From the IMG/VR virus record IMGVR_UViG_3300045988_089740: a stretch of 64,000 bases of DNA; one strand, 5' to 3'. A program made the translations under genes and the position numbers. This DNA is from a virus. The notes below the pieces were generated by a model. It had not been told where the DNA came from and did not search any database. It was given only the letters and a program-made list of their open reading frames with translations. Of the stretch, positions 14,354 to 42,633 are shown one piece after another; the stretch's first letter is position 1, and each line of letters opens with the position of its first letter.

Positions 14354-14514
14354 CCTGTATCAGTACGGATTTATGATAATGAAATAGATATCCAAAACCA
14401 AATTTCCTCCAAATGAGTTACGACTGATACAGGCGTTCCAGGATAAACATAAATATAGCAATGGTGTTTTTGAAGTATATCACGTGCGGCAGGGTTGAGC
14501 GACTGCCGCAACAT

Positions 14515-14586
14515 AGCGCATTGGCGAAGCGGTAACGCACCGGACTTTGACTCCGTTATGCGTGGGTTCGAATCCCACATGCGCCG
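14515..14586 (+). tRNA. tRNA-Gln (anticodon UUG)
   Basis: Cloverleaf by eye: acceptor 6 bp + A1-C72 mismatch, D stem GCG/CGC, anticodon stem CCGGA/TCCGT, loop CUUUGAC, T-arm GTGGG-TTCGAAT-CCCAC. Confidence 0.75.
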
Positions 14587-14802
14587 TTCTGCATCGAGTT
14601 TATATCTTTTTCTTGGTGCAGATTGGATTTTCTTTTTCCTTTTTTAACGAAATACCCTTTAACCACCTATCGCAACGGCGATGACTAAAGGAACAGTCAA
14701 ACGTTCCGGGTGGTTTTAACCTTTGTTGCGGCTGGTGGCCAAGAACTGCAACAGTAGTAAAAAGACAGATATCACATCGACCCTGTATCTTTTTGCTACT
14801 CA
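14587..14802 (+). ncRNA. structured inter-tRNA spacer
   Basis: No ORF; junction AACCACC 14661-14667 / GGTGGTT 14709-14715 enclosing hairpins ATCGC-AACG-GCGAT and GACT..AGTC; further GTTGC..GCAAC stem. Confidence 0.35.
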
Positions 14803-14876
14803 GGAAGCTTAGCTCAGTTGGTCAGAGTAACCGGCTCATAACCGGTCGGTCCTGGGTTCGAACCCCAGAGCTTCCA
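14803..14876 (+). tRNA. tRNA-Met or Ile2 (anticodon CAU), elongator type
   Basis: GGAAGCT/AGCTTCC acceptor, D GCTC/GAGT (C11-G24), anticodon stem ACCGG/CCGGT, loop CUCAUAA, T-arm CTGGG-TTCGAAC-CCCAG. Confidence 0.85.
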
Positions 14877-15410
14877 TTTCTCCCGAAGCTGTCCATCCGT
14901 TTTGTGGATAGAAAAAACTGCCGAATGTGTGTATGTGGGTTGTTTTTCAGAAGGTACGTAACGGCGTAGCCGGATTTGAAAAAGCAACTTCCCGTTCGGT
15001 TCTGTCTCTGAGTTGAATATGTCGCCAATGAGTGCACGTTGACGACAGGGAGTTTTCAAGAGGCATTTCAGGAATAATCCTCCGAAACAACTCCGTGGGA
15101 CTGGCACGGATGAAAACAGTCTAGTGGAAAGCATAACACGATAAACCTATTGCTAACCCGGGAATCCGGGTTATTCGGAATGTGCAAGTAACTGGGAACG
15201 ACCTGGTCGTAGACTAGGTCTTGATGGTTCGAATCCATCCGTTCCGCTTGTCTGGAGCCTGAAAGTTTGGCGTGGGAATAGCGCAGGGCAGCGCATGGGA
15301 ATGTAATTCCGAGTTCCGGACATGTTTGCTGCCTATCGGATTGTAAAGTGGTCTCCCTTAAAGTAGGCAATAAGTGAACGTGTTGAAATGGTTCTTCCAG
15401 ATATGTACAT
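14877..15410 (+). ncRNA. candidate large structured ncRNA between tRNAs (GOLLD/ROOL-like or novel)
   Basis: 534 nt without credible ORF, flanked by tRNAs, many hairpins (e.g. AACCCGG-GAAT-CCGGGTT 15155-15172, GGAAT-GTA-ATTCC, GAAC..GTTC); embeds a tRNA-like unit. Confidence 0.35.
15176..15247 (+). tRNA. aberrant tRNA-like gene (anticodon GUA if canonical register)
   Basis: 72 nt in canonical register: acceptor CGGAATG/CGTTCCG (one G-U), anticodon stem CCTGG/CTAGG, loop UCGUAGA (C33), perfect T-arm GATGG-TTCGAAT-CCATC, but D stem cannot pair. Confidence 0.4.
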
Positions 15411-15482
15411 CGCAGGATGGAGAAGCGGAATCTCGCAAGGTTCATACCCTTGAGAACGGCGGTTCAAATCCGTCTCCTGCAA
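15411..15482 (+). tRNA. tRNA-Met (CAU), initiator-like
   Basis: C1-A72 mismatch and A11-U24 pair (initiator hallmarks); D GAGA/TCTC, anticodon stem CAAGG/CCTTG, loop UUCAUAC, T-arm GGCGG-TTCAAAT-CCGTC. Confidence 0.75.
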
Positions 15483-15598
15483 TTAATCCGTCTATCGTTC
15501 AGCGGATTAAAGCAAATTCTCAATATACCTTCTTTCTATGAATGTGGAACTCAACCCAATTGCTCTTTCATTAGAACAATTGACCGTGACAGACGTCA

Positions 15599-15669
15599 TG
15601 GAATGTAGCTCAGTGGTAGAGCAGTGACTTACAAGTCATGTGTCGCAGGTTCGATTCCTGCCTTTCCGA
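15599..15669 (+). tRNA. aberrant tRNA (Val-like UAC) with 6-nt anticodon loop
   Basis: Good D arm GCTC-AGTGGTA-GAGC and T-arm GCAGG-TTCGATT-CCTGC; anticodon stem GTGAC/GTCAT leaves loop UUACAA (6 nt); acceptor has U1-G72 and U6-U67. Confidence 0.45.
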
Positions 15670-22836: not shown

Positions 22837-24330
22837 GTGGGCAGAAATAAAATGAATTTCATTGACTTATGCCGGGGCGAATTTGGCCGCAAAATTGCCT
22901 ATACCGGTGTAAGCCAGATCACAACAGCAAATGTCATAAAAGTTATTTCTAATACAATCGGCATTCATAATAGAAACAGAACTTTGATCGATTACTTGTA
23001 CCGGTACTACAAAGGAGATCAGCCGATCCTTTATAGAGAGAAGTTGGTTCGTCCGGAAATTAATAACCGAGTGTGTGAAAATCATGCACTTGAAGTTGTT
23101 CGCTTTAAATCATCTCAGACATATGGAGAACCTATTCAGTATGTATGTAAAAAGAGCAGGGCTACAGAACGGGTGAATAAACAGGTCGATTTATTCAATG
23201 ATTACTTAAAAGAAGCAAATGCAGAAGCACGTAACATTGAACTTGGAACCTATCAGAGTGCCGTAGGAACTGCATATAAAGCTATTCTAAAAGAGGATGA
23301 TTGGACGAGCGACAGTGATATTTCTCCATTCAACATTTTTATACCATATCCTAGCGATTGCTATATTGTTTACTCTCGTAAGAACGGAAAGCCAATGCTC
23401 TCAGTGCAGATTCTTAAGGATGAAAACGAACAGCAGTATTATTTATGCTTTTCAGCAAAACAATATTTCGAGATTCAGAATGGACAGATTACAAAAACCG
23501 GCATCAATGGTTTTGGTGGCATCCCGGTAGTTGAGTACCCGAATAACCACGATCGTCTTTCTGATATCGAGATTGCGATAACCATGTTTGACACTATGAA
23601 CAACATGCAGTCAAACAGGATGGATGGCGTAGAACAGTTCGTGCAAGCCCTTATGAAGTTTAAGAACTGTGAGATTGATGAAAGCGAATTTTTGAAAATG
23701 ATCAAGCTCGGCGCTATCTCTGTAAAGGATACTGGAAATGGTTGCCAGTCAGATGTTGACCTGATGACCGCTGAACTGAATCAAACAGAAAGCCAAGTTG
23801 CAAAAGACGATATCTACAGCAACATGCTTATTGTTGAAGGTATGCCGGACAGGCAGCAACAATCTTCTGGCGATACCGGCCAAGCTGTATATCTCAGAAA
23901 TGGATGGGATTTTGCAGAACGTAGAGCAAAACTGGATGAACCATTTATCCGGGAAGCTGAGAAAGCAAGTGCCAGAATCATTCTGAATATCATCCGACAG
24001 ACCACAAAGGATATTTCAATCTCAACAAGAGATTTTGATGTAAAGATAACCAGAAACCCGACAGATAACATGCTTGTCAAAGCACAGGCTCTTGACTATC
24101 TGTTTAAGAATAAAATTCATCCGCTGATTGCACTGATTACTTGCGGATTATTTAGTGATCCACAAAAGGTATATGAAATGAGTTTGCCTTACTTGGGAAC
24201 TGTATATCCCGAACTGGCAGACCCGGACGCGGAAATGCAGAAAGCACAACAATTGATTGATAAAAACGGTAAGAATTCGGCTGAAATTGATTCAACGGTA
24301 AATTCTTCGGCTATCAATCAAAACTCGTAA
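22837..24330 (+). CDS. portal protein (SPP1 gp6-like)
   Basis: GTG start after GGGAGGTG (alt ATG 22852); LIDYLYRYYKGDQPIL..RPEINNRV..N.A..VVRFK pattern of SPP1-type portals; position after terL. Confidence 0.8.
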   Translation: MGRNKMNFIDLCRGEFGRKIAYTGVSQITTANVIKVISNTIGIHNRNRTLIDYLYRYYKGDQPILYREKLVRPEINNRVCENHALEVVRFKSSQTYGEPIQYVCKKSRATERVNKQVDLFNDYLKEANAEARNIELGTYQSAVGTAYKAILKEDDWTSDSDISPFNIFIPYPSDCYIVYSRKNGKPMLSVQILKDENEQQYYLCFSAKQYFEIQNGQITKTGINGFGGIPVVEYPNNHDRLSDIEIAITMFDTMNNMQSNRMDGVEQFVQALMKFKNCEIDESEFLKMIKLGAISVKDTGNGCQSDVDLMTAELNQTESQVAKDDIYSNMLIVEGMPDRQQQSSGDTGQAVYLRNGWDFAERRAKLDEPFIREAEKASARIILNIIRQTTKDISISTRDFDVKITRNPTDNMLVKAQALDYLFKNKIHPLIALITCGLFSDPQKVYEMSLPYLGTVYPELADPDAEMQKAQQLIDKNGKNSAEIDSTVNSSAINQNS

Positions 24331-24486: not shown

Positions 24487-25146
24487 ATGACAAGAGAACA
24501 GGCAAAACAGGTACTTATCGGCTTTGGAATCGAGGAACCGTCTGAAGATCAGGTGACTAAATATCTTGATTCTGTTGAAACAGAGACAAAAAAAGTGAAG
24601 GAAAAAAACACTTCTCTGAAAGAAAGAGCTGATAAAGCAGATTCCCTTCAAAAGGAACTGGATGATTTGAAAGCCCAGAATATGACGGATGCCGAAAGGC
24701 AGGAAGCAGAGCGACAGAAGGAAAAAGCAGAAAACGAAAAGAGGATTTCCGACCTGGAAAAAGCACTTGCTGAATCTAACAGGAAAGCACTTTCCAGTGA
24801 GATTACGTCTGCTTTCGCTAATGCGGGCCTTTCTACAGAAACGTATGCAAGCGCTATCAAAGCATTTGCGTCTATGCCAGCAGACAAATCTGAAGACGTA
24901 ATGAAGGAAGTCAAAACTTTTGTTGATGGAATTTCCGAAGCAAATAAAGCGGCTCTGGATAACGCAAAATCTGAATGGGAGAAAGCAGTTCTTAACGATA
25001 CTCCGAATCCAGGTGGCGGAAATTCAGACAAGGGACAGAAAAAAGATGATAACGATAGTCCAGCAGCTAAGTACGCAAAAGCTTACTCAGCACGCATGAA
25101 CCCCAAAACAGAACCGGCAGACGATAACGCACCGGTTAATTTTTAA
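24487..25146 (+). CDS. scaffolding protein (GP20-like)
   Basis: SD AAAGGAG; E/K-rich coiled coil, position between portal and capsid. Confidence 0.65.
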   Translation: MTREQAKQVLIGFGIEEPSEDQVTKYLDSVETETKKVKEKNTSLKERADKADSLQKELDDLKAQNMTDAERQEAERQKEKAENEKRISDLEKALAESNRKALSSEITSAFANAGLSTETYASAIKAFASMPADKSEDVMKEVKTFVDGISEANKAALDNAKSEWEKAVLNDTPNPGGGNSDKGQKKDDNDSPAAKYAKAYSARMNPKTEPADDNAPVNF

Positions 25147-25168: not shown

Positions 25169-25513
25169 ATGGCTTTTATGAAAACAAAACAGTATGAGTC
25201 AACTCCTAACATTCTCGAATCCGAGGTTGGGCTTGTACTGAAAACTTACACAGCAGACGCAACAAATGCAACGGCAGTAAATGATAAAAAAATCATCAAA
25301 GCAGGTTCCGTGTATCCGACAAATGGGACTGGTGCAAAAGGAATCGTATTTGAAGATGTTGATATGACAGATGATGCTAAAAGACCGATTTCCGTGATTG
25401 TAGCAGGACGTGTCCTTGAGAAAAGACTACCAGTTACAGTCGACGAAACTGCAAAAACAGAGCTTACCGCGCAGGGAATTGTTTTTGTAACCACAACAGA
25501 CCCAGTATTTTAA
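25169..25513 (+). CDS. capsid-associated (decoration-like) protein
   Basis: Small beta-rich protein between scaffold and major capsid genes; positional inference. Confidence 0.4.
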   Translation: MAFMKTKQYESTPNILESEVGLVLKTYTADATNATAVNDKKIIKAGSVYPTNGTGAKGIVFEDVDMTDDAKRPISVIVAGRVLEKRLPVTVDETAKTELTAQGIVFVTTTDPVF

Positions 25514-25528
25514 GGAGGTATAGCCAAT

Positions 25529-26563
25529 ATGCCATACAATGTATTAGAAGCTATCACAGCAGAAGAAAGATTGAATTTTGCTCAGAATTTTTCTGTGGCA
25601 AGACCTGGTATTCTCGATACCATTTTCCCGGATGTAAAGACACCGTTTTGGAAAGCCGAATATTACAGACTTATGGCTGGACAACGACTGCCGGAGGTAG
25701 CGTTCGTTCATGCACTCGATACTGAAGCAGAGATCGGCTCCAGACCAGGATTTGAGAAAGTTCTGACTGAAAAACTCTTTATCAAGAGGAAAATCAATCA
25801 GTCAGAGCGTCTCCAGGAAGCTATCGAAAATGGTGTTCCGGATGATGAAACTCTTACAAACTTTGTTTTTGACGATGCGACAAACCTGTTTGAAGGTGTT
25901 GTTGGAAGGGCAAACATCATGAAAGGCCAATTCCTTTCAACCGGTATGGTAAAAATTGATGAAAACAATGTGAAAATGAATATCGATTATGGCGTACCAA
26001 GTAATGCAAAGGTTGATCTTACCGACTGGTCCGCAGCAGACGCAGATATCATGGGCGATATTCAGAAGATGGTAACTGTAGCCGAGGATTCTGGATATGT
26101 AGTGACAAATGCAGTCACATCTCTGAAGATGATCAACTATATGAGAAACAACACAGCTATGCAGACGGCTGTTCTGGGAGCTGCGAATAAACGTCTCCTT
26201 ACCAGACAGGAGCTTGCAAATCTGCTCATGCAGGAGTACGGAATCACCATTGGTCGTTGCGATGAGAAATTCTGTTACAGAAAAGCAGACGGAACTCGGT
26301 CAACTGGAAGATACTTTAAGGAGGATGTATTTACTCTTTACGAAGCTGATGCAGGCGGTTCTTTCGGTACTGGACTTTGGGGACCAACACCGGAAGAGAA
26401 TGAATACAGACAGTTCATCCAGGAAGAGAACCGTTCTTTCGTTACTCTTTCCATGTGGGCTACACAGGATCCAGTTGCCGTATGGACAAAAGCATCCGGT
26501 ATGTTCATCCCGGTAGCACCGAAAGCCAACGGCGGTATCGTTATCGGTACAAAGGGGGAATAA
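25529..26563 (+). CDS. major capsid protein (protein E-like family)
   Basis: 344 aa, position and overall pattern of E-like capsid proteins; SD AAGGAGG. Confidence 0.75.
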   Translation: MPYNVLEAITAEERLNFAQNFSVARPGILDTIFPDVKTPFWKAEYYRLMAGQRLPEVAFVHALDTEAEIGSRPGFEKVLTEKLFIKRKINQSERLQEAIENGVPDDETLTNFVFDDATNLFEGVVGRANIMKGQFLSTGMVKIDENNVKMNIDYGVPSNAKVDLTDWSAADADIMGDIQKMVTVAEDSGYVVTNAVTSLKMINYMRNNTAMQTAVLGAANKRLLTRQELANLLMQEYGITIGRCDEKFCYRKADGTRSTGRYFKEDVFTLYEADAGGSFGTGLWGPTPEENEYRQFIQEENRSFVTLSMWATQDPVAVWTKASGMFIPVAPKANGGIVIGTKGE

Positions 26564-26751
26564 GCGGGCATAGCCTTGATGAAAACAGCCAGTCACCGTC
26601 TGTAGCTAGTGTTACACATAAGTATACAGAAAGCGAGCTGTCCAGTATGACAGTGGCTCAACTGAGACAGCTTGCAAGTGACAATGGTTATGCCCTGACT
26701 TCCACAAACAAGGCTGGTATCATATCAGAGATTATAGCACAGCAAGGGTAG
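26551..26751 (+). CDS. candidate -1 frameshift extension of capsid protein (HeH/Rho-N-like tail)
   Basis: Slippery A_AAG_GGG 26551-26557 in capsid frame; -1 frame open to TAG 26749-26751; ..MTVAQLRQLASDNGYALTSTNKAGIISEI resembles HeH/Rho-N motif; no SD or ATG for an independent gene before 26647. Confidence 0.4.
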   Translation, partial: KGGISGHSLDENSQSPSVASVTHKYTESELSSMTVAQLRQLASDNGYALTSTNKAGIISEIIAQQG

Positions 26752-26761
26752 GTGAAATGGC

Positions 26762-27085
26762 ATGGACGAACAGCTTACAAGTGATCTAGCAATGTATCTG
26801 GAAGGTGATGAACAGACTGCAAGGATGATTCCTTTGGCAGTCAAAAGAGCTATTCGGTCATTCCAGAAAAAACGCAATTATCCTGAGAGTTATACGGAAG
26901 AAAACATCAATAAAGATATGGACAAATGCTATGATTGTATTTTCGATTTGGCTCTTTATTTTCTTGTGAAACAGGGAGTTGAGTTTGAAACATCTCATTC
27001 GGAAAATTCTGTAAATGCAGGATGGAACTCCGAAACAGAGATATTTGTCAATCATGGCGTTTTTCCATTTGCCAGAGGAATCTGA
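26762..27085 (+). CDS. head-tail connector (gp6-like) protein
   Basis: ~107 aa directly after capsid gene; positional and size inference. Confidence 0.45.
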   Translation: MDEQLTSDLAMYLEGDEQTARMIPLAVKRAIRSFQKKRNYPESYTEENINKDMDKCYDCIFDLALYFLVKQGVEFETSHSENSVNAGWNSETEIFVNHGVFPFARGI

Positions 27086-27197: not shown

Positions 27198-27509
27198 ATG
27201 GGATGTGAACAGAATTGCTTTAACGAACACCGCTTAGAAGAATTGGAAAAAGTTGTTCACGAAATGAAAGAGAAACATTCTAAACGTGACGGAATTTTTT
27301 TTGAACGTATCAATGCGCTTGAGACCAAAATCGTTCTTTACAACAATAATCTCGGACACATAAAAAAAACGGTAGATGAAATGAATGATAATTTAAAATC
27401 CCTTATGGAAGCCCCGGCAAAACGCTACGATACGATTGTTGTTTGCGTTATCACAGCAGTAATCGGGGCTATTGTAGGGTTTGCGTTAAGCGGTATTTTT
27501 CCGGTATAA
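27198..27509 (+). CDS. XhlA-like (haemolysin XhlA family) membrane protein
   Basis: N-terminal coiled coil (LEELEKVVHEMKEK..) and C-terminal TM IVVCVITAVIGAIVGFALSGIF, typical XhlA architecture. Confidence 0.5.
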   Translation: MGCEQNCFNEHRLEELEKVVHEMKEKHSKRDGIFFERINALETKIVLYNNNLGHIKKTVDEMNDNLKSLMEAPAKRYDTIVVCVITAVIGAIVGFALSGIFPV

Positions 27510-27547
27510 CAAGCAATTCCACTTGTAAGGGAGGATGGTGGAATTAT

Positions 27548-27802
27548 ATGAATTATACAGACTTTTCAGAAGATGAAAGAAAGTTTTATCTAAGTGAATC
27601 CGGGTTTGATTCCCGAGAAAAAGAGTTTTTCCGGTTGAGAGTTTATGAGGAAAAGACGTTGTTTGAAACAGCAGAGATTATGGGGTATAGTCCTAGAACC
27701 ATTGACCGTATAAACCGAAAAGTAAAAAAGAAGATTGTTAAAGTTGCCCCGATGTACTATCGGGGCTTTTCTTTGTATCATGGCGAAAACATGGCGAAAT
27801 AG
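27548..27802 (+). CDS. small sigma-70 region-4 / LuxR-type HTH protein
   Basis: SD GGGAGGATGGTGG; REKEFFRLRVYEEKTLFETAEIMGYSPRTIDRINRKVKKKI. Confidence 0.5.
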   Translation: MNYTDFSEDERKFYLSESGFDSREKEFFRLRVYEEKTLFETAEIMGYSPRTIDRINRKVKKKIVKVAPMYYRGFSLYHGENMAK

Positions 27803-28717: not shown

Positions 28718-29530
28718 ATGATGAATGGTTCTAATTACAGTCTTAGCGACATTGCAGCTGCTACAGGCTCTAATAACCGTGCCAATGACATGTGGGGCGG
28801 CGATGGTTTTTCACTTATTTGGCTCGTGCTGATCTTCGCAATCTTCGGATGGGGAGGTTTCGGCGGCTGGGGCGGTGGCTTCGGCGGTAATGGTGGAAAT
28901 GGTGCAAACGGTGCCGGTTTCCAAGGATGGGCTACACGTGCCGATATCAATGAGAGCTTTGCTCTTAACGATATCCAGAACGGTATCAGAGGTATTCAGC
29001 AGGGTATCTGCGACAGCACATATGCGCTCAACAATACCATGCAGAGCGGTTTCAACGGCATGAACGTTGGAATGCTTCAGGGCTTCAATGGCGTTCAGCA
29101 GGCAATCAATGCTGATACTGTAGCCGGTATGCAGAATACCAATGCATTACAGTCTCAGTTAGCAAACTGCTGTTGTGAAACCAGGGAAGCTATCCAGGGC
29201 ATCAACTACAACCTGGCTACCAACACTTGTGCTCTTCAGAACACAATGAACAACAACACCAGAGATCTTCTGGAAAATCAGAACAGCAACACGAGAGCAA
29301 TCCTTGATTTCCTGACAAATGATAAGATTGCAACATTACAGGCAGAGAACTCTGACCTGAAACGTGCTGCATCTCAGGATCGCCAGAGTGCACTGCTTAC
29401 AACTGCAATGGCTTCTCAGACACAGCAGCTCATTAATGCAATCAATCCGGCAGCTATCCCGGCATACGTTGTTCCGAATCCAAACACCTACTACGGTGGA
29501 TGCAACGGATACAGCAACGGTTGCTGCTAA
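28718..29530 (+). CDS. TM + Gly/Trp-rich, Asn/Gln-rich, Cys-terminated protein
   Basis: SD AAGGAG; FSLIWLVLIFAIFGW TM, WGGFGGWGGGFGGNGGNGANGAGFQGW, CCC motif, C-terminal GGCNGYSNGCC. Confidence 0.55.
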   Translation: MMNGSNYSLSDIAAATGSNNRANDMWGGDGFSLIWLVLIFAIFGWGGFGGWGGGFGGNGGNGANGAGFQGWATRADINESFALNDIQNGIRGIQQGICDSTYALNNTMQSGFNGMNVGMLQGFNGVQQAINADTVAGMQNTNALQSQLANCCCETREAIQGINYNLATNTCALQNTMNNNTRDLLENQNSNTRAILDFLTNDKIATLQAENSDLKRAASQDRQSALLTTAMASQTQQLINAINPAAIPAYVVPNPNTYYGGCNGYSNGCC

Positions 29531-36868: not shown

Positions 36869-37345
36869 ATGTATAAACTTTTAAAGATTGGTAGCAAAGA
36901 GTATAAACTGGAATACGGCATTGAAGCATCTTTGTATGATGATTGTGTCAAGAGTGTAATGAACACACTTCTGGCAACAAGCGGTGGTGTGGACAAAACG
37001 CCGGAAGAAATGATTTCCGGCATGGCAAATATTCCGAGCACAGCATTAACCGTGTTTTATGCAGGACTTCTTCAGTATCATGGCGACAACCCGGATGCAG
37101 ACGGTTCTGTTCCGACTCTTGCAACTGCGAAGAAACTTGCAGCACAATTTATTCAGGAACATAAGGACGATGAGCAGGGTAACTTTTACGGTATCTTTAC
37201 CATGTGTCTTGACCAGATGGAGGAAGACGGTTTTTTCAAACTGACCGGTCTGGAGACGTTCATGGGCGATCTGAACGTAGCAGCCAAACCGAAGAAAACT
37301 CCGAAGAAGCCGACAGATCACCAGAAAAAAGCTACAGCGAAATAA
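36869..37345 (+). CDS. tail assembly chaperone (gpG-like)
   Basis: Position before tape measure; basic C-terminus. Confidence 0.6.
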   Translation: MYKLLKIGSKEYKLEYGIEASLYDDCVKSVMNTLLATSGGVDKTPEEMISGMANIPSTALTVFYAGLLQYHGDNPDADGSVPTLATAKKLAAQFIQEHKDDEQGNFYGIFTMCLDQMEEDGFFKLTGLETFMGDLNVAAKPKKTPKKPTDHQKKATAK

Positions 37346-37743
37346 TCTGGACAGAGTTATATCCGGCGGCAGTTCGCATCGGAATGAGCCGGAAAGAATT
37401 TCTCAGAAGTACCATACGTGACCTTCAAGTAAGGATACGTGAGTACGAGAAAGGTAAACGTGATGAAATAGAAACTCAGGTAAAACTGATTGAATATCAG
37501 TCATGGCTTTCCGGCTTATATGTGAAATCTGCGGTATCAAGTGCACTTTCTGGCAAAGCAAAATATCCAGATAAACCAATCACAGAAAAAACAAAGAAAC
37601 CACAGCTTGAAGAAAAAACAGATGTTCCGAAACGGTCTGAAGCTGAATTGAAGCAGGAAGAACGTTACTACGAACTTCTGATAAAAAAGGCAAATGCGAA
37701 TATCGCTGAGATAGGAAGTGAAGAGGGCAGACAGGATGAATAA
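37329..37743 (+). CDS. -1 frameshift extension of tail chaperone (gpGT-like)
   Basis: A6 run CAG_AAA_AAA_GCT 37322-37333; -1 frame open from upstream of slip site through 37743; internal ATG 37384. Confidence 0.5.
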
Positions 37744-37791: not shown

Positions 37792-40700
37792 ATGGCTGAT
37801 AATACCATTGATACCCTTGATATACAAATAAATAGTAGTACCAGGAACGCTACAAAAGCATTGGGAAATCTGGCTAAAAAGTTAAAGGATGTTGACACAG
37901 CACTGGGAAACGTCAATACCGGCGGGCTTAGAAACTATGCTCGTGAAATCGGAAGAGTATCAGCGGCTTTACAGACATTAAGCAGGACAAATGTTAGTGT
38001 GCCTAATTTGTCTGGATTAACCGGACAACTTCGTAGTTTATCGAAAGTTAATTTTTCGGAATTGGAAACAAGTGCAAAAAGCTTTCAAGAATTAGCTGTA
38101 GGATTGGGCTCTTTGAAAAATGTTTCTAGTGTTTCTATACCTAAAATAGATGCTAAAAACATCAATTCTGTGATTAATGTTATAAATAAGTTTCAAACAA
38201 TTGATACTGCAAAAATTCAACCATCCATAAATGCTATTAAAGAAATATCAAGAAGCATGTCGTTGCTGGGTAATTTGAATTTCAAAGAAAATGGTCTGAT
38301 AAATGCGGCAAATGCATTAAGACGTTTATCACAATCAGACATTAAAAACTTTGATACAGACAAATTAATTTCCATATTCAGAAGTCTTCAGGCTTTTTCA
38401 ACGCTTCCAGATATTTCATCAGGCATAAACAGATTGGTTTCATCTCTTGCAAAATTAGTGGCCGCAGGAGATAAATCGAATCAAGCGGCTAAAGGATTAG
38501 AATTACTTGGAATAAAATTAAACGGAGTCATAAGAAATATTTCATACGCAGGCGAAGTCTCTGATTCCATTAATTCGTTGATACAAGCCCTTGCAAAATT
38601 GGCATCAGCAGGAAATAAAACAGGCCAGACGGCATCGCAGTTAGCAAATCTTGCAGTAGAATTAAAGAAGTTTTTTGCAGCTATGAAAAACGCACCACAA
38701 ATCAGTCAGAGCACTGTGCGCGTTATAGTTGCACTGGGACAGTTAGCGGCGGCTGGTGGTAAGGCTAGTGCATCAATGAATTCTGTATCCAGATCCCTTG
38801 AAGGACTTTCTATGATAAGTTCTAGTTTATCAAGCGCCATGAGCTCACTTGCTAATATGGCAAAATCGGGATTTGGTACTTTAACATCATCTATTTCAGG
38901 GCTGGTAAATAAGGGAAAAGAATTAAAAAGTACATCATTCAATATCAGCTCTTTGCTTAAAACCGTTCTTGGCTTCAAAGCGGCTTCGGCCGTGATGAGC
39001 AAATTCAGCGAAGCCATGGGTGGAAAAGGAATCCTTGAGATCGGTTCCGATATCGCTGAGGTCGAGAACGTTGTAGACGTTGCTTTTGGAAGCATGGCAG
39101 ATCAGGCATACAAGTTTGCGTCCACGGCGACGAAACAGTTCGGACTGTCGGAACTGGCAGCAAAGAACTATTCCGGAACCATGATGGCAATGCTGAATGC
39201 TTCTGGTGTAGCACAGGAATCCGCTGCGAAGATGTCAACAACTCTTGCAGGATTAGCCGGAGATTTGGCATCTTTTTATAACATTGATACTGATACCGCC
39301 TTCTACAAAATAAGGGCGGGCATTTCAGGTGAAATCGAGCCTTTAAAACAGCTCGGAATAAATCTTTCGATCGCAAATTTACAAGAGTATGCGTTGTCAC
39401 AAGGAATTACGACAGCCTATAATTCCATGACGCAGGCTCAAAAAACGATGCTGCGCTATAACTACATCATGTCAGTTACAAGTGCGCAGCAGGGGGACTT
39501 CGCCAGGACCGCCGGATCTTGGGCCAATCAAGTACGTCTCCTTACTTTGAACATCCAGTCCCTTGCATCCGCCATAGGGCAGGGCTTAATCGCAGCGGTT
39601 CTTCCGGGAATCAAAGCTCTTAATGCCCTGATGTCCAAACTTATGCAGGCAGCAGAAACATTCAGAAACTTTATGTATGTTTTAATGGGTAAAAAAATCA
39701 AAGGATCTACCAGCGGAGTTGTGAATGATCTTGCCGGACTTGATAACGCAGCAACAGATCTTAGCAATATGGAAAATGCCGGAGATGACGCAGCATCCGG
39801 ACTTGATAACGCCACTTCATCAGCAAAAGCATTAAAGAAAGCCCTTTCAGTACTTCCTTTTGATGAATTAAATCAGCTTACTGATAATTCGAGTAGTTCT
39901 GGATCAACGCCGAGTACCGGAACAAAGAAAACCAGTACCGGTGCAACACCTGACCTTGGGCTTGGTGGCATCACGGATCAGATTGATGATGCGCTGAACA
40001 AAGAAGAAACCCCTATCAATAAATGGGCTGAAAAAATCCGCAAAGCTTTTCTTAACCATGACTGGAAAGGACTTGGAAAGACCATTGCAGATATGCTTAA
40101 TATCGGAATCCGGAAGATTTATGATGTTATAAGTTGGAAAAATGTTGGCCCTAAAATCACGGCTTTCACAGACGCTTTTACAGAAACATTTAACAGTCTT
40201 GTTGATAATATTGACTGGAACCTGATGGGACGCACTTTGGGGGCTGGTCTTAACACCATCGTTAACACTATGAACCAGCTCCTTGATGGAATTGATTGGT
40301 ATAACTTAGGAGCCAAATTTGGAACCGGAATTACAGGACTTGTAAAAGAAGTAAATTGGACTAATCTTGGAAACCTTATTGGAAATTCATTTATGAAAGC
40401 CTGGGACATGTTCGCTGGCTTGGTAAATCATCTGCCCTATGCAGATATCGGAAAAGCATTTGCTGATTTATTAAATGGAGTTTTCGAAAAAATTAACTTC
40501 ACAAACATAGCACACGTATTAGCTACTGGTTTAAACGGTGCGTTTGATTCTCTTAAATCATTTACTGTAAATTTCAAATGGGATGATCTTGTCGATAACA
40601 TTACTGGCGGCATCACCACATTCATGCAGCAATTTAAGTGGAAAGAAAACGGTCAGAAGCTTGAGGAATTTATAGATAACCTTTTGACATCCCTTGTCGA

Positions 40701-42633
40701 CATTGCGAACGGTGTAGATTGGGAAGCTTTTGGACATAATATAGGTGTTTTCCTTAGCGAAATAGACTGGTCGAAACACTTGTCACAAATCACAACAGTT
40801 ATCAGCGAGGTTCTGGGCGGAATTTGGAATGGTCTTGGTACCACATCGGCAGGAACTTTTATTCAGGCTATAGCAACATTTGCCATTGGTATGAAATTAA
40901 TGCCATTTGTCGATGGAATCGTAAAATTTTTCACAGGTGATACTGTAATTGGTTTGCTGTATTCAGCTGTTCGGAACATGTTAGGCCCAGCATTGGCTTC
41001 AGCAGCATCTACTACGATTCCAGCGTTTGGCTCATCACTCGCAGCTCTTGTAGGAACCGGTGGCGGAATAGCTATTGCTGCCGCAGGAGCAGTAATTCTT
41101 ACCAAAAAACTTGTAGGGTTGTTTGAAACTATGCAAGGTGGAAATGGAATGTCTACTCAGTACGGCGGTTATCTGCATGACTATGCTGCAAAACTGAATG
41201 AATTAACCACAATCACAAATGATCAATCAGAAGCCCTGTGGAAAATGATTGAAAAAGATGAAGAGCTTGGTAAATCTCATGATGAAATGTATTCTGATAT
41301 GATTGAAAAGCTTAAAGAATACGGAGTTTCGACAGAACAAGCCAGAAGTGCTCTTGAACAATATGGTGCACAGGCTGGCGTTTCTGCTGAGTTTATCGAT
41401 AGTATGACAGATAAGATTCAGGCATTAGGAAACGGCTTTTCTGAAAGTACGGGCCAGATTGATATGTCTTCTCTTAGTGCAAAAGAAGCTATTAGCACGC
41501 TTTCTGACACTTTGTACCTTTTAAGCTTAAAAGGTGATGAATTTAGTGGTACATATATCGGCGTAAGAGATCAGTTACAGAACACCGGAGGAAGCGTGCA
41601 AAGTGCAAACGAAGCGTTAAAAATAGTATACAATGCATTACAAAATGCAGGAGTACCTCTCGATGATTTGAATAAAAAATTATCGAAAGATTTTCCAAAC
41701 GCTACCGGAGCTGTTACTACTGCGGTTAAAAATAATATTGTTGGTGCGCAACAAAAAATTTCCTCAACTATGATGACAGCAAGTGTTGATACAAAAAATG
41801 CAACAAATAAAATGGTAAGCACTACTACAAGCGATCTCGCTGAAATCCAGAAGCAAGCAGATGGCTATATGAAAGGTGTTGACACCAGCACGACAACTCA
41901 CTGGGGAAATTCTTCCCGTGAAGTAACCAAAAATGTCCGTCAGATGAAGATTGATGCAAGTACAGAGCTTGGCAGAATGGACGAAACCGTCCGCAGCCAC
42001 TTTGGAAGCCAGTACAGGATTGCCTTAAGTAAATGGCAAGATCTTGGAAGAGATATTTCTTCCTACATCCGCGGAACTATGAACACAAGTATTGGAAGTG
42101 GAATTAATACTGTAGTTGATACGATTAAAAGAAATTTCAGTGATATGTACAGTGTTGGCCAGAATGCTATGCAGAATCTCCGAAACGGCATGGAGTCAAT
42201 CAACATCAGAACTCCACATATTTCCATGGATTACACTGATTGGCAAGAGGGACGGACCCACAAGTGGCGGTACAATTCGAGAGTTGACTGGTATGCCAAA
42301 GGCGGTCTTTTCAATGCAGCATCCGTGATCGGTGTCGGTGAAGCCGGAAAGGAAGCAGTCCTTCCGCTGACCAACAAACAGGCCATGAAGAGCATTGCTG
42401 ACAGCATTACCGGAAACATGCCGGAAGGAAGCGTTGGACTGAGCAAGGAAGAAATGACACAGGCAGTGACACAGGGTGTTGCCATGGCAATGATGAACAT
42501 GAACACCGGCGGAAGCACATCTCCGCAGTACATTTCCAACACGATCAATCTGGACGGCCGGGCGTTTGCGAAAGCTATCACAAAAGCCCAGCAGGACAAC
42601 AACCGGCGTAAAAATCCGAGTCCGGCATGGTAG
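37792..42633 (+). CDS. tape measure protein
   Basis: 1613 aa, helical/Ala-Ser-rich with hydrophobic central segments, after chaperone pair. Confidence 0.9.
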   Translation: MADNTIDTLDIQINSSTRNATKALGNLAKKLKDVDTALGNVNTGGLRNYAREIGRVSAALQTLSRTNVSVPNLSGLTGQLRSLSKVNFSELETSAKSFQELAVGLGSLKNVSSVSIPKIDAKNINSVINVINKFQTIDTAKIQPSINAIKEISRSMSLLGNLNFKENGLINAANALRRLSQSDIKNFDTDKLISIFRSLQAFSTLPDISSGINRLVSSLAKLVAAGDKSNQAAKGLELLGIKLNGVIRNISYAGEVSDSINSLIQALAKLASAGNKTGQTASQLANLAVELKKFFAAMKNAPQISQSTVRVIVALGQLAAAGGKASASMNSVSRSLEGLSMISSSLSSAMSSLANMAKSGFGTLTSSISGLVNKGKELKSTSFNISSLLKTVLGFKAASAVMSKFSEAMGGKGILEIGSDIAEVENVVDVAFGSMADQAYKFASTATKQFGLSELAAKNYSGTMMAMLNASGVAQESAAKMSTTLAGLAGDLASFYNIDTDTAFYKIRAGISGEIEPLKQLGINLSIANLQEYALSQGITTAYNSMTQAQKTMLRYNYIMSVTSAQQGDFARTAGSWANQVRLLTLNIQSLASAIGQGLIAAVLPGIKALNALMSKLMQAAETFRNFMYVLMGKKIKGSTSGVVNDLAGLDNAATDLSNMENAGDDAASGLDNATSSAKALKKALSVLPFDELNQLTDNSSSSGSTPSTGTKKTSTGATPDLGLGGITDQIDDALNKEETPINKWAEKIRKAFLNHDWKGLGKTIADMLNIGIRKIYDVISWKNVGPKITAFTDAFTETFNSLVDNIDWNLMGRTLGAGLNTIVNTMNQLLDGIDWYNLGAKFGTGITGLVKEVNWTNLGNLIGNSFMKAWDMFAGLVNHLPYADIGKAFADLLNGVFEKINFTNIAHVLATGLNGAFDSLKSFTVNFKWDDLVDNITGGITTFMQQFKWKENGQKLEEFIDNLLTSLVDIANGVDWEAFGHNIGVFLSEIDWSKHLSQITTVISEVLGGIWNGLGTTSAGTFIQAIATFAIGMKLMPFVDGIVKFFTGDTVIGLLYSAVRNMLGPALASAASTTIPAFGSSLAALVGTGGGIAIAAAGAVILTKKLVGLFETMQGGNGMSTQYGGYLHDYAAKLNELTTITNDQSEALWKMIEKDEELGKSHDEMYSDMIEKLKEYGVSTEQARSALEQYGAQAGVSAEFIDSMTDKIQALGNGFSESTGQIDMSSLSAKEAISTLSDTLYLLSLKGDEFSGTYIGVRDQLQNTGGSVQSANEALKIVYNALQNAGVPLDDLNKKLSKDFPNATGAVTTAVKNNIVGAQQKISSTMMTASVDTKNATNKMVSTTTSDLAEIQKQADGYMKGVDTSTTTHWGNSSREVTKNVRQMKIDASTELGRMDETVRSHFGSQYRIALSKWQDLGRDISSYIRGTMNTSIGSGINTVVDTIKRNFSDMYSVGQNAMQNLRNGMESINIRTPHISMDYTDWQEGRTHKWRYNSRVDWYAKGGLFNAASVIGVGEAGKEAVLPLTNKQAMKSIADSITGNMPEGSVGLSKEEMTQAVTQGVAMAMMNMNTGGSTSPQYISNTINLDGRAFAKAITKAQQDNNRRKNPSPAW

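Follow-up and report, generated by a model that had tools for sequence, protein, structure and literature searches.

The capsid gene and its 3′ end

The IMG/VR virus record IMGVR_UViG_3300045988_089740, of which a stretch of 64,000 nucleotides (nt) was analyzed (referred to here as the window), contains a major capsid gene whose 3′ end is overlapped by an open reading frame (ORF) in the −1 frame. The sequence comparisons described below indicate that a −1 programmed ribosomal frameshift (−1 PRF) just before the capsid stop codon probably makes a minor protein in which the capsid is followed by a linker and a HeH-like domain. Such an extension of the capsid had been suggested in a preliminary description of the window, and the suggestion is supported by the open −1 frame and its coding signature, by tails that lack a start codon, by natural in-frame fusions and by the predicted RNA structure.

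The capsid ORF encodes 344 amino acids (aa) and matches Pfam Phage_cap_E (E = 2.4e-12) and phrog_29 (E = 2.9e-37); an HK97-like fold was predicted for its homolog P0001. The last codons of the gene are ACA (26549-26551), AAG (26552-26554), GGG (26555-26557), GAA (26558-26560) and TAA (26561-26563). After a shift the −1 frame reads GGA ATA AGC and onwards to TAG, and it was found to be open past the capsid stop codon for 64 sense codons plus TAG, with the tail ending in ...MTVAQLRQLASDNGYALTSTNKAGIISEIIAQQG, as had been described. The gene order in this region (portal, scaffold-like, decoration-like, capsid and an ORF at the adaptor position) is that of a standard head module. Neither an intrinsic terminator nor a known (Rfam) RNA family was found in 26300-26900. 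The features of the locus are as follows, SD standing for Shine-Dalgarno:

22837-24330: SPP1-type portal, head module
24487-25146: scaffold-like ORF, head module
25169-25513: decoration-like ORF, head module
25529-26563, + strand: major capsid protein ORF, zero frame, 344 aa (Phage_cap_E, phrog_29)
26551-26557, + strand: slippery heptamer A_AAG_GGG in the capsid phase, containing the core G_GGG (26554-26557)
26554-26563, + strand: junction motif G GGG GAA TAA (five G, AA, stop), kept across the family
26557-26751, + strand: −1 extension, 64 sense codons and TAG (26749-26751), giving a predicted 407-aa capsid-HeH fusion
26557-26613, + strand: linker part (GISGHSLDENSQSPSVASV), predicted to be disordered, a length-variable block in relatives
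26614-26748, + strand: HeH/SAP-like domain (THKYTESELSS-MTVAQLRQLASDNGYALTSTNKAGIISEIIAQQG)
26647-26649, + strand: internal ATG with a weak SD, the start of the 34-aa ORF in public records, in the loop of hairpin P4 (below)
26762-27085, + strand: next gene, 107 aa, at the head-tail adaptor position, with its own SD site

The junction motif and its conservation

It was confirmed that the heptamer A_AAG_GGG lies at 26551-26557 in the X_XXY_YYZ phase of the capsid frame, two codons before the stop codon, and so a motif that allows −1 re-pairing (X_XXY_YYZ or Z_ZZN) is present in the zero frame. Of 11215 codon positions in the 41 window ORFs, 59 hold an in-frame XXXYYYZ heptamer, and the capsid heptamer is the sole one within five codons of a stop. 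A −1 ORF of at least 30 codons beyond the zero-frame stop follows only three window heptamers, the capsid one included, and one of the other two is a candidate tail-chaperone site (below). Of the −1 heptamers measured in E. coli, A_AA.G_GG.G is one of those that shift most efficiently (Sharma 2014, PMC4066793).

Two scans of IMG/VR, with 505 and 379 window-family matches that overlap between the scans, yielded about 160 related loci and 107 distinct sequences, 102 of which require a shift for the tail to be read; for a second family there were 106 matches. The relatives are metagenome-derived contigs; where a record states its source, this is human faeces. Their capsids are 79-99% identical, and the genomes are about 75-85 kb where assembled near full length. 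A host search of genome contigs gave an uncultured Clostridiales contig as the sole match, a distant one (43% identity) without the tail. The junctions of the 102 distinct shift-requiring sequences were distributed as follows:

ACA AAG GGG GAA TAA: 43 sequences
AAA/AAG GCG GGG GAA TAA: 50 sequences
ACG AAG GGG GAA TAA: 4 sequences
AAA ACG GGG GAA TAA: 2 sequences
AAG GGA AAA TAA: 1 sequence
AAG AGG GAA TAA: 1 sequence
GCG GGG AAA TAA: 1 sequence

Conservation of the heptamer and of the overlap in related phages had been proposed as a check on the frameshift. The overlap is conserved, since no stop codon interrupts the −1 frame between the junction and the end of the HeH domain in 159 of 159 shift-requiring loci (all 102 distinct sequences), but A_AAG_GGG is intact only in the window clade (about 45 of the 102). 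The conserved core of the slip motif is G_GGG followed by GAA and the stop codon, occasionally G_GGA_AAA or G_GGA_AAC, and one of these forms was found at every capsid gene bearing a −1 HeH tail. The base before GGG is G whatever amino acid is encoded (Lys AAG, Ala GCG, Thr ACG, Pro CCG, Val GTG, Leu CTG or Ser TCG). In the window, GGG makes up 10% of Gly codons and is the rarest of them, AAG 30% of Lys codons and GCG 13% of Ala codons; because these minority codons are nevertheless kept, the five-G run is held at synonymous sites.

Coding signature of the −1 frame

Changes were counted by Fitch parsimony on a neighbor-joining tree built from the 101 usable sequences among the 107 distinct ones. 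In the linker there were 303 changes, of which about 10.8 would be expected to create stop codons under neutrality, and none was seen. The changes at the first, second and third codon positions were 56, 38 and 179 in the HeH domain and 14, 16 and 44 in the ten codons before ATG 26647 (HKYTESELSS; p = 1e-5), and such position bias is a signature of coding. The pairwise pN/pS was 0.12 for the capsid, 0.12 for the HeH domain and 0.20 for the linker. Capsid third positions have undergone about 6.8 changes per site on the relatives' tree, and the first 17 linker codons are far less variable than these positions. Plain counts of variable sites per codon position in the linker (17, 17 and 19) were uninformative, and tree-based counts were needed. 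The tail is 61, 62, 65, 66 or 67 codons long among the relatives, all insertions and deletions being multiples of three.

The overlapping −1 ORF is, in summary, conserved as coding sequence and has no initiation site of its own, which is the pattern looked for in −1 PRF. Stop-codon readthrough and an alternative genetic code were considered and rejected, the tail lying in a different frame from the capsid.

Predicted RNA structure downstream of the slip site

A consensus fold was computed from 80 distinct sequences, and its elements in the window are:

26566-26575, + strand: 5′ arm of helix P1 (GGGCAUAGCC), paired with 26686-26695
26686-26695, + strand: 3′ arm of helix P1 (GGUUAUGCCC), within the HeH coding sequence
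26592-26596, + strand: helix P2, GUCAC paired with GUGAC at 26678-26682
26599-26604: hairpin, paired with 26625-26630
26633-26675, + strand: hairpin P4 (GCGAGCUGUC ... GACAGCUUGC), 26633-26642 paired with 26666-26675, enclosing ATG 26647
26558-26565, + strand: 8-nt spacer between the heptamer and helix P1

Helix P1 (10 bp) is predicted to close a multibranched domain that begins 8 nt after the heptamer. A spacing of 8 nt is canonical for a −1 PRF stimulator, and by position the predicted structure falls within the 5-9 nt past the slip site where a stimulator is looked for. The minimum free energy of the window fold is −56.3 kcal/mol (z = −4.4), and none of 200 shuffled sequences was as stable; folds of single sequences gave the window architecture also in the divergent relatives L038 and L091. 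In the 80 sequences, 99.6% of cells in the consensus are paired, a level reached by none of 500 shuffles, and there were 31 cells changed on both sides of a pair compared to 10.6 ± 2.5 in the shuffled sequences. Four pairs of P1 vary, and yet 100% of its cells are paired. The pair types in P2 were GC 52, GU 15 and AU 12, with one mismatch, and in P4 a C-G pair is replaced by U-A in 18 of the 80 sequences, the change being synonymous on both arms. A first consensus fold, in which AGCCA paired with UGGYU, was superseded by P1 once the full region was folded and was dropped because its 3′ arm is shared with P1.

Predicted structure of the tail

In an AlphaFold model of the 64-aa extension, the first approximately 20 residues are disordered (predicted local distance difference test score, pLDDT, of about 53) and are followed by a domain with pLDDT 92-97. 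Helices were predicted at residues 25-29, 33-43 and 52-63, with an extended connector between the second and the third. The full-length natural fusion P0001 was predicted as a capsid fold, a low-confidence linker at residues 344-369 and then a HeH-like domain. The HeH-like fold starts about 10 residues before the Met of ATG 26647, and so a 34-aa peptide made from this ATG would lose the first helix. When window-family sequences were aligned with those of a second family (that of L169, introduced below), the T, E and L residues upstream of the Met/Leu position were invariant.

The thresholds of the Pfam families were not reached by the tail, for either SAP (E = 0.032, 14.3 bits compared to a threshold of 23.9) or Rho_N (E = 0.076, 13.4 compared to 24.9), whereas phrog_3281 matches it with E = 1.4e-6 over the C-terminal 50 positions of that family. 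The best Foldseek matches were of the SAP/HeH type, namely the SAP domain of Tho1 (target-normalized TM-score 0.63, root-mean-square deviation 1.3 Å), the C-terminal domain of T4 endonuclease VII, the N terminus of Rho, MANF/CDNF and PIAS1; all had E > 1, which is to be expected when the query is this small. B. subtilis YqbF (PDB 2HJQ), presumably encoded beside a capsid gene, was the top Foldseek match, again non-significant. Profile and sequence searches of the PDB with the tail gave no relevant match. The earlier designation of the tail as HeH/Rho-N-like is in line with the predicted helix-extended-helix fold but is not backed by the SAP and Rho_N profiles, and we use "HeH-like" for the predicted fold, not for membership of a family.

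Distant capsid homologs (30-56% identity; P0143, P0148, P0162 and others) carry in-frame Big_2, cadherin-like or SbsC_C β-sandwich domains directly after the capsid fold, which is where the window capsid stops. Because of these in-frame domains, the capsid C terminus is evidently an attachment site for display modules, and modules placed there presumably face the outside.

Natural in-frame fusions

A protein search with the hypothetical fusion as the query returned mostly capsids of 344/345 aa, plus proteins of 411-412 aa that cover 100% of the fusion. The junctions of the in-frame loci differ as follows: five G have become six (G5 to G6) in L085/86 on the AAG background and in L087 on the GCG background, GGGGGAA has become GGGGGAAA (+A) in L081-84 from four separate samples, and 10 nt have been deleted in L065. 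As judged from the sequences, the capsid-tail fusions represent four independent mutation events. In the clade of the +A variant, about 34 IMG/VR contigs were recovered and all have the unfused junction; therefore the fusions appear to be sporadic derivatives of a shift-requiring majority. Taken alone, these sequences would show only that a capsid-HeH fusion is tolerated.

The same arrangement on unrelated capsids

A tblastn search of GenBank phages with the HeH domain led to MT835516.1 (L169), a phage of 43 kb from human faeces. BLASTP detected no similarity (E = 3.6) between its capsid of 310 aa (phrog_544) and the window capsid, and the gene at the position of the window 107-aa ORF matches phrog_541, a head-tail adaptor family. 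The L169 capsid gene ends ACA CCG GGG GAA TAG, and the −1 frame reads GGIVPTTQAVNASGELTEEYLNSLTVAEIKALAESKGYSLTATKKADIISEILSQQ* (region 2447-2621). In 80 IMG/VR relatives of L169 (L170-L249) the junction motif does not vary, and a stop in the −1 frame lies 5-9 codons upstream. The tail contains no ATG, GTG or TTG in 77 of these 80, the position of the Met being occupied by Leu.

Further lineages, L250-L254, were reached through small ORFs called at this position:

L250: capsid end CCT GTG GGG GAA TAA, −1 tail GGITGYSL...
L251 (Pfam Phage_capsid): capsid end ACG GGG GAA TGA, −1 tail GGMITAAEADTD...
L252 (distant Phage_cap_E): capsid end GCG GGG GAA TGA, −1 tail GGMMGYTL...
L254 (Phage_capsid): capsid end TCG GGA AAC TGA, −1 tail GKLMMAGANNEDN..., with the canonical heptamer G_GGA_AAC

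From two further scans came 98 loci with capsids of the Phage_cap_E or Phage_capsid family (42-99% identity to the queries; within L255-L357). The slip motif was found in 22 of 22 loci with a −1 HeH tail compared to none of the 76 without (Fisher test, p = 2e-20, computed before L340 was counted as tailed). The tailed loci were 21 identified by a hidden Markov model and L340, whose divergent tail was recognized by inspection; their capsid genes end in NNG GGG GAA followed by TAA, TAG or TGA, in CTG GGA AAA TAA or in GTG GGG GGA TAA. In the 76 tailless loci the capsid gene has other end codons, and after it come a normal SD site and the next gene. In L320 and L327, the whole tail is without a canonical start codon.

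Long-range helices 6-9 nt past the slip site were also predicted in L250, L252 and L254, formed by differing sequences; in L254 an 11-bp helix follows a 6-nt spacer, and in L252 the P1 arms (GGGCUAUACCC paired with GGGUAUAGCCU) differ from those of the window on both strands with the helix kept. In L169 a hairpin was predicted 5 nt after GGG. As a side observation, the P1 arms encode two peptide motifs, G-(H/Y)-S where the linker starts and G-Y-(A/S) within the HeH domain, and in L252 the changes of H to Y and S to T in one of these motifs are matched by A to S in the other; it looks as if protein sequence co-varies here because of the RNA helix.

By sequence comparison, the motif and a −1 linker-HeH tail occur on at least three unrelated capsid families, namely Phage_cap_E, HK97-type Phage_capsid and phrog_544. 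We lean slightly towards the view that the motif, structured RNA, acidic/Ser-rich linker and HeH domain form a self-contained, mobile −1 recoding cassette that has been grafted onto these (at least three) families. The phages that bear it come mainly from human faecal or gut samples, and also from other metagenomes.

Start codons and alternative explanations

The preliminary description stated that the −1 frame offers no start codon with an SD before 26647, and this was found to be correct. There is no ATG, GTG or TTG between the junction and 26647, and in the whole interval from the upstream −1 stop at 26401 to 26647 just two canonical start codons occur, GTG 26455 (SD duplex +1.2 kcal/mol) and ATG 26482 (−4.1 kcal/mol), both upstream of the junction and without an SD. 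A −1 stop codon lies 10-11 codons ahead of the capsid stop in 54 of the 102 distinct sequences, and therefore the linker of these could be translated only by ribosomes that arrive in the capsid frame. Separate starts at GTG 26455 and ATG 26482, which would give the 98-aa and 89-aa ORFs of some gene callers, were rejected on both grounds.

Several points weigh against frameshifting. G_GGG_GAA is not a canonical X_XXY_YYZ heptamer, and Z_ZZN tetramers are barely shifty without a stimulator (Sharma 2014, PMC4066793). In the same study G_GG.G constructs gave a signal above background, and this was ascribed to initiation of an SD-like kind at a −1 AUA close by. Almost everywhere the stop codon is preceded by A, which makes the overlapping −1 codon ATA or ATG and would also suit reinitiation, and in several lineages an ATG does overlap the stop (ATGA). 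The first 17 linker codons have a weak codon-position pattern (31, 52 and 57 changes), which we attribute to the overlapping RNA helices and to disorder. The covariation comes from closely related sequences with few independent events, and the folds of L251 and L169 depend on the folding window chosen. Finally, the fused alleles are 5 of 107 distinct sequences and are possibly mildly deleterious mutants.

Some of these points bear on the main rival, and a serious one, which is termination-reinitiation: ribosomes that finish the capsid would restart at the −1 AUA (26560-26562) overlapping the stop codon (AUAA; AUG where the stop is UGA) and make a free linker-HeH protein of about 63 aa. We consider it unlikely, although it would account for a stop-overlapping −1 codon that is ATA or ATG in almost all lineages, for a last sense codon that is GAA or AAA and never GAG in the 102 distinct sequences, for the ATGA and TGATG overlaps of L251-L254, which are of the classic coupling kind, and for an RNA fold in which the start is masked unless the preceding ORF is being translated, as is typical of coupling. 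However, AUA is a very poor initiator, and a single neutral TAA-to-TGA change would yield AUG, yet ATA is kept in 102 of 102 distinct window-family and 80 of 80 L169-family sequences. In the 98-locus set the codon is ATG with a TGA stop and ATA with TAA or TAG, and it switches between ATG and ATA in the close relatives L318 and L319; across the lineages compared, a canonical start at the stop was found only where the capsid stop is TGA (L251, L252, L266-281, L318 and L323). This alternation, together with the invariant ATA, indicates that selection does not act to keep a canonical start. The G-run resembles an SD, and G_GG.G was reported to drive initiation at a −1 AUA (Sharma 2014, PMC4066793), but in the window the run ends 1 nt from ATA 26560, too close for SD function, so that the canonical start with a properly spaced SD expected of a coupled gene is lacking. 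L254 has CTG at that codon but a canonical G_GGA_AAC heptamer. Reinitiation also leaves unexplained the selection for G before GGG and the 6-9 nt spacing of the helix, the four independent in-frame fusions speak against it, and a free protein with a long, disordered, length-variable N terminus is less natural than a tether.

That the tail is an independent 34-aa HeH gene starting at ATG 26647, with the preceding 84 nt an untranslated spacer conserved for its RNA, is very improbable. Gene callers and GenBank records of metagenome-assembled genomes (MAGs) do annotate a 34-aa "HeH/LEM domain" protein, the ATG is invariant in the window-family sequences examined with one exception (ACG in L103), and the spacer does carry conserved RNA helices. 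The annotations, however, are inconsistent in their starts: public records call the tail either a 34-aa "HeH/LEM domain" or a 50-aa "Rho termination factor N-terminal domain" protein, and ORFs of 43-67 aa are called as well. The SD duplex of ATG 26647 is −4.4 kcal/mol compared to a median of −9.0 for the 41 window genes, 21% of window ATGs being equal or better, and the ATG is enclosed in hairpin P4. HKYTESELSS upstream of it has a coding signature, is part of the confidently predicted fold and aligns with conserved residues of the L169 family, in which 77 of 80 tails are startless with Leu at the Met position, as L320 and L327 are also startless. A separately initiated small protein, which had been named as the finding that would count against a frameshift, is thus contradicted by coding upstream of the ATG, by the startless tails and by the in-frame fusions.

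About equally improbable are routes to the long protein that do not involve the ribosome, either RNA polymerase slippage on the G5A2 run or a phage population mixed for G5 and G6. The +G and +A alleles do occur in metagenomes and the site is a homopolymer run, but productive transcriptional slippage in bacteria requires longer A/T runs, of about 8-9 nt or more (reviewed in PMC5009743), and G5 is short for phase variation. The fused alleles are few, and the conserved structure at a PRF-like spacing would be unexplained.

The remaining possibility, that the tail is an unexpressed, decaying remnant of an ancestral in-frame fusion broken by a 1-nt deletion in the G/A run, would fit the single-base differences of the in-frame versions in G5A2 and the distant homologs with in-frame C-terminal domains, but it is effectively refuted by conservation, since the tail is under purifying selection like that of the capsid, no stop or frame-breaking indel is seen in 159 loci despite the changes at capsid third positions, and the shifted state is the majority in several deep lineages and on unrelated capsid families.

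Other features of the window

A second −1 candidate of the tail-chaperone type, recognized by position, is T_TTT_TTC at 37231-37237 in the ORF 36869..37345, 38 codons before its stop. The −1 frame from 37231 is open for 170 codons, to about 37743, and covers the ORF 37384..37743; the ORF 36869..37345 matches phrog_36112 (function unassigned), and a tape-measure ORF (37792..42633, 1613 aa) is directly downstream of the candidate. Within the head-tail module there are an XhlA-like "hemolysin" ORF (27198..27509, phrog_937) and an ORF for a sigma-70 region-4-like regulator (27443..27802). A T_TTA_AAA heptamer at 27392, followed by a 136-codon −1 ORF that corresponds to the regulator ORF 27443..27802, is probably there by chance, because in relatives the regulator ORF is called from its own ATG. 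An ORF of 270 aa at 28718-29530 (+ strand) has an N-terminal part of low complexity that is rich in Gly, Trp and Phe (GWGGFGGWGGGFGGNGGNGANG), and its C-terminal end, GGCNGYSNGCC, is rich in Cys.

A tRNA-like gene at 15599-15669 (+ strand; Rfam tRNA, 54.6 bits; ARAGORN "tRNA-???") has a six-nt anticodon loop, UUACAA, between the stem arms GUGAC and GUCAU. The six-base loop is kept in 22 of 23 related IMG/VR contigs, the other having TTAAAA, and it is therefore not a sequencing error. The neighboring tRNA genes are Gln(TTG) at 14514-14587 and Met(CAT) at 14803-14876 and 15410-15483. A link of the odd tRNA to the frameshift was considered, and no evidence bears on it.

Proposed mechanism and comparison with known systems

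In the model that we favor, most ribosomes would terminate at TAA 26561 and produce the 344-aa capsid, and a minority would slip back by one base on the G-run and read GGA ATA AGC and onwards to 26751, producing the 407-aa protein. Slippage in the window would be tandem, on A_AAG_GGG; in the wider family tRNA-Gly would slip on G_GGG, or a tandem slip with near-cognate pairing would take place on G_GGG_GAA. It would probably be helped by the rare GGG codon, by the nearby stop and by the structure closed by the 10-bp helix. The trans-frame peptides predicted from this model are GGISGHSLDENSQSPSVASVTHK for a shift on AAG/GGG and GEISGHSLDENSQSPSVASVTHK for a shift on GAA at the stop, and the predicted tail peptide encoded upstream of ATG 26647 is YTESELSSMTVAQLR. 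The long form would have at its C terminus a disordered linker of about 20-25 residues and a HeH/SAP-like domain of 40-45 residues, and would presumably enter the shell in minor amounts along with the 344-aa form, its HeH domain being held on a tether outside. In this model we infer the occurrence of slippage, the slip codon, the efficiency, the incorporation into virions, the exterior location and a ligand of the HeH domain.

A parallel with the T7 capsid isoforms gp10A and gp10B had been drawn for the window, and it is a sound one in that the site is at the 3′ end of a Phage_cap_E capsid gene and the product is C-terminally extended. The T7 capsid extension is C-terminal and dispensable in length, and the T7 slip site is U/C-rich. 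In gene 10 of T7 and T3 (10A/10B), as proposed here, a −1 shift occurs a few codons before the capsid stop and yields a minor extended species (PMC5009743). The window differs in that the capsid family is unrelated, the slip site is another one with the stop one codon after the slip codon, the added module is a linker with a HeH/SAP-like domain and not the T7 peptide or the T3 Ig-like domain, and the predicted stimulator is a long-range multibranch helix.

Capsid recoding is also known in Lactobacillus casei phage A2 (gp5A/gp5B, −1) and in the Listeria phages A118/A500 (−1) and PSA (+1), all phages of Firmicutes (PMC5009743). As is proposed for the window, recoding at a 3′-terminal site in the major head gene yields an additional, longer head protein in those phages, and the event is stimulated by a downstream RNA structure. 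Their extensions are Ig-like or of other kinds and their slip sites are C_CCA_AAA-type or CCC, with no HeH tail reported, whereas the window-type cassette is on at least three unrelated capsid families. According to the review of Atkins et al., such extensions are reached in frame or by a shift in either direction, indifferently (PMC5009743), and the presence of both in-frame and shifted forms in the window family fits this indifference to the route.

Ig-like domains are found on phage structural proteins, partly by way of PRF (Fraser et al., as cited in PMC5009743), and, as is proposed for the window tail, they are modular, mobile, C-terminal display domains that are reached in frame or by frameshift. 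They are β-sandwiches, in contrast to the α-helical HeH/SAP-like module of about 40-45 residues on a disordered tether that is predicted here. The tail chaperone pair gpG/gpGT resembles the arrangement proposed for the window in having a conserved −1 PRF in a virion-structure module and a fixed ratio of short to long form, and differs in the gene, the function and the slip position, which is well inside the ORF and at canonical heptamers. The stand-alone HeH/Rho_N-like ORFs of public MAGs share with the window tail the predicted fold class and the place between the capsid and the head-tail adaptor; in contrast to them, the tails of the window and of several lineages have no credible start, and the domain begins upstream of the annotated ATG.

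A full-text search of the literature found no description of a HeH or Rho_N capsid frameshift. From the sequences compared here, what appears to be new is the HeH/SAP payload in place of an Ig-like one, the G_GGG slip motif next to the stop, the long-range closing helix and the recurrence on unrelated capsids.

Capsids that are extended through a frameshift are known in a small number of cultured phages, and here such extension is indicated for uncultivated phages in hundreds of contigs. If it is confirmed, the 34-67-aa "HeH/LEM" or "Rho N-terminal" ORFs would be capsid C termini, the annotation of many genomes would be corrected, and the recoding signal could be used by gene finders. The shifted, +G, +A and 10-nt deletion forms would then be a natural series for the study of capsid decoration stoichiometry, and the question would arise of what role a domain of a DNA- or polyanion-binding type has on the exterior of a phage head. 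If the cassette view is true, this would be a widespread recoding class with a non-canonical slip site immediately before the stop codon, now annotated as tiny "Rho_N/HeH" ORFs or missed, and many phages would obtain from it a minor capsid subunit with a tethered domain of a nucleic-acid-binding type.

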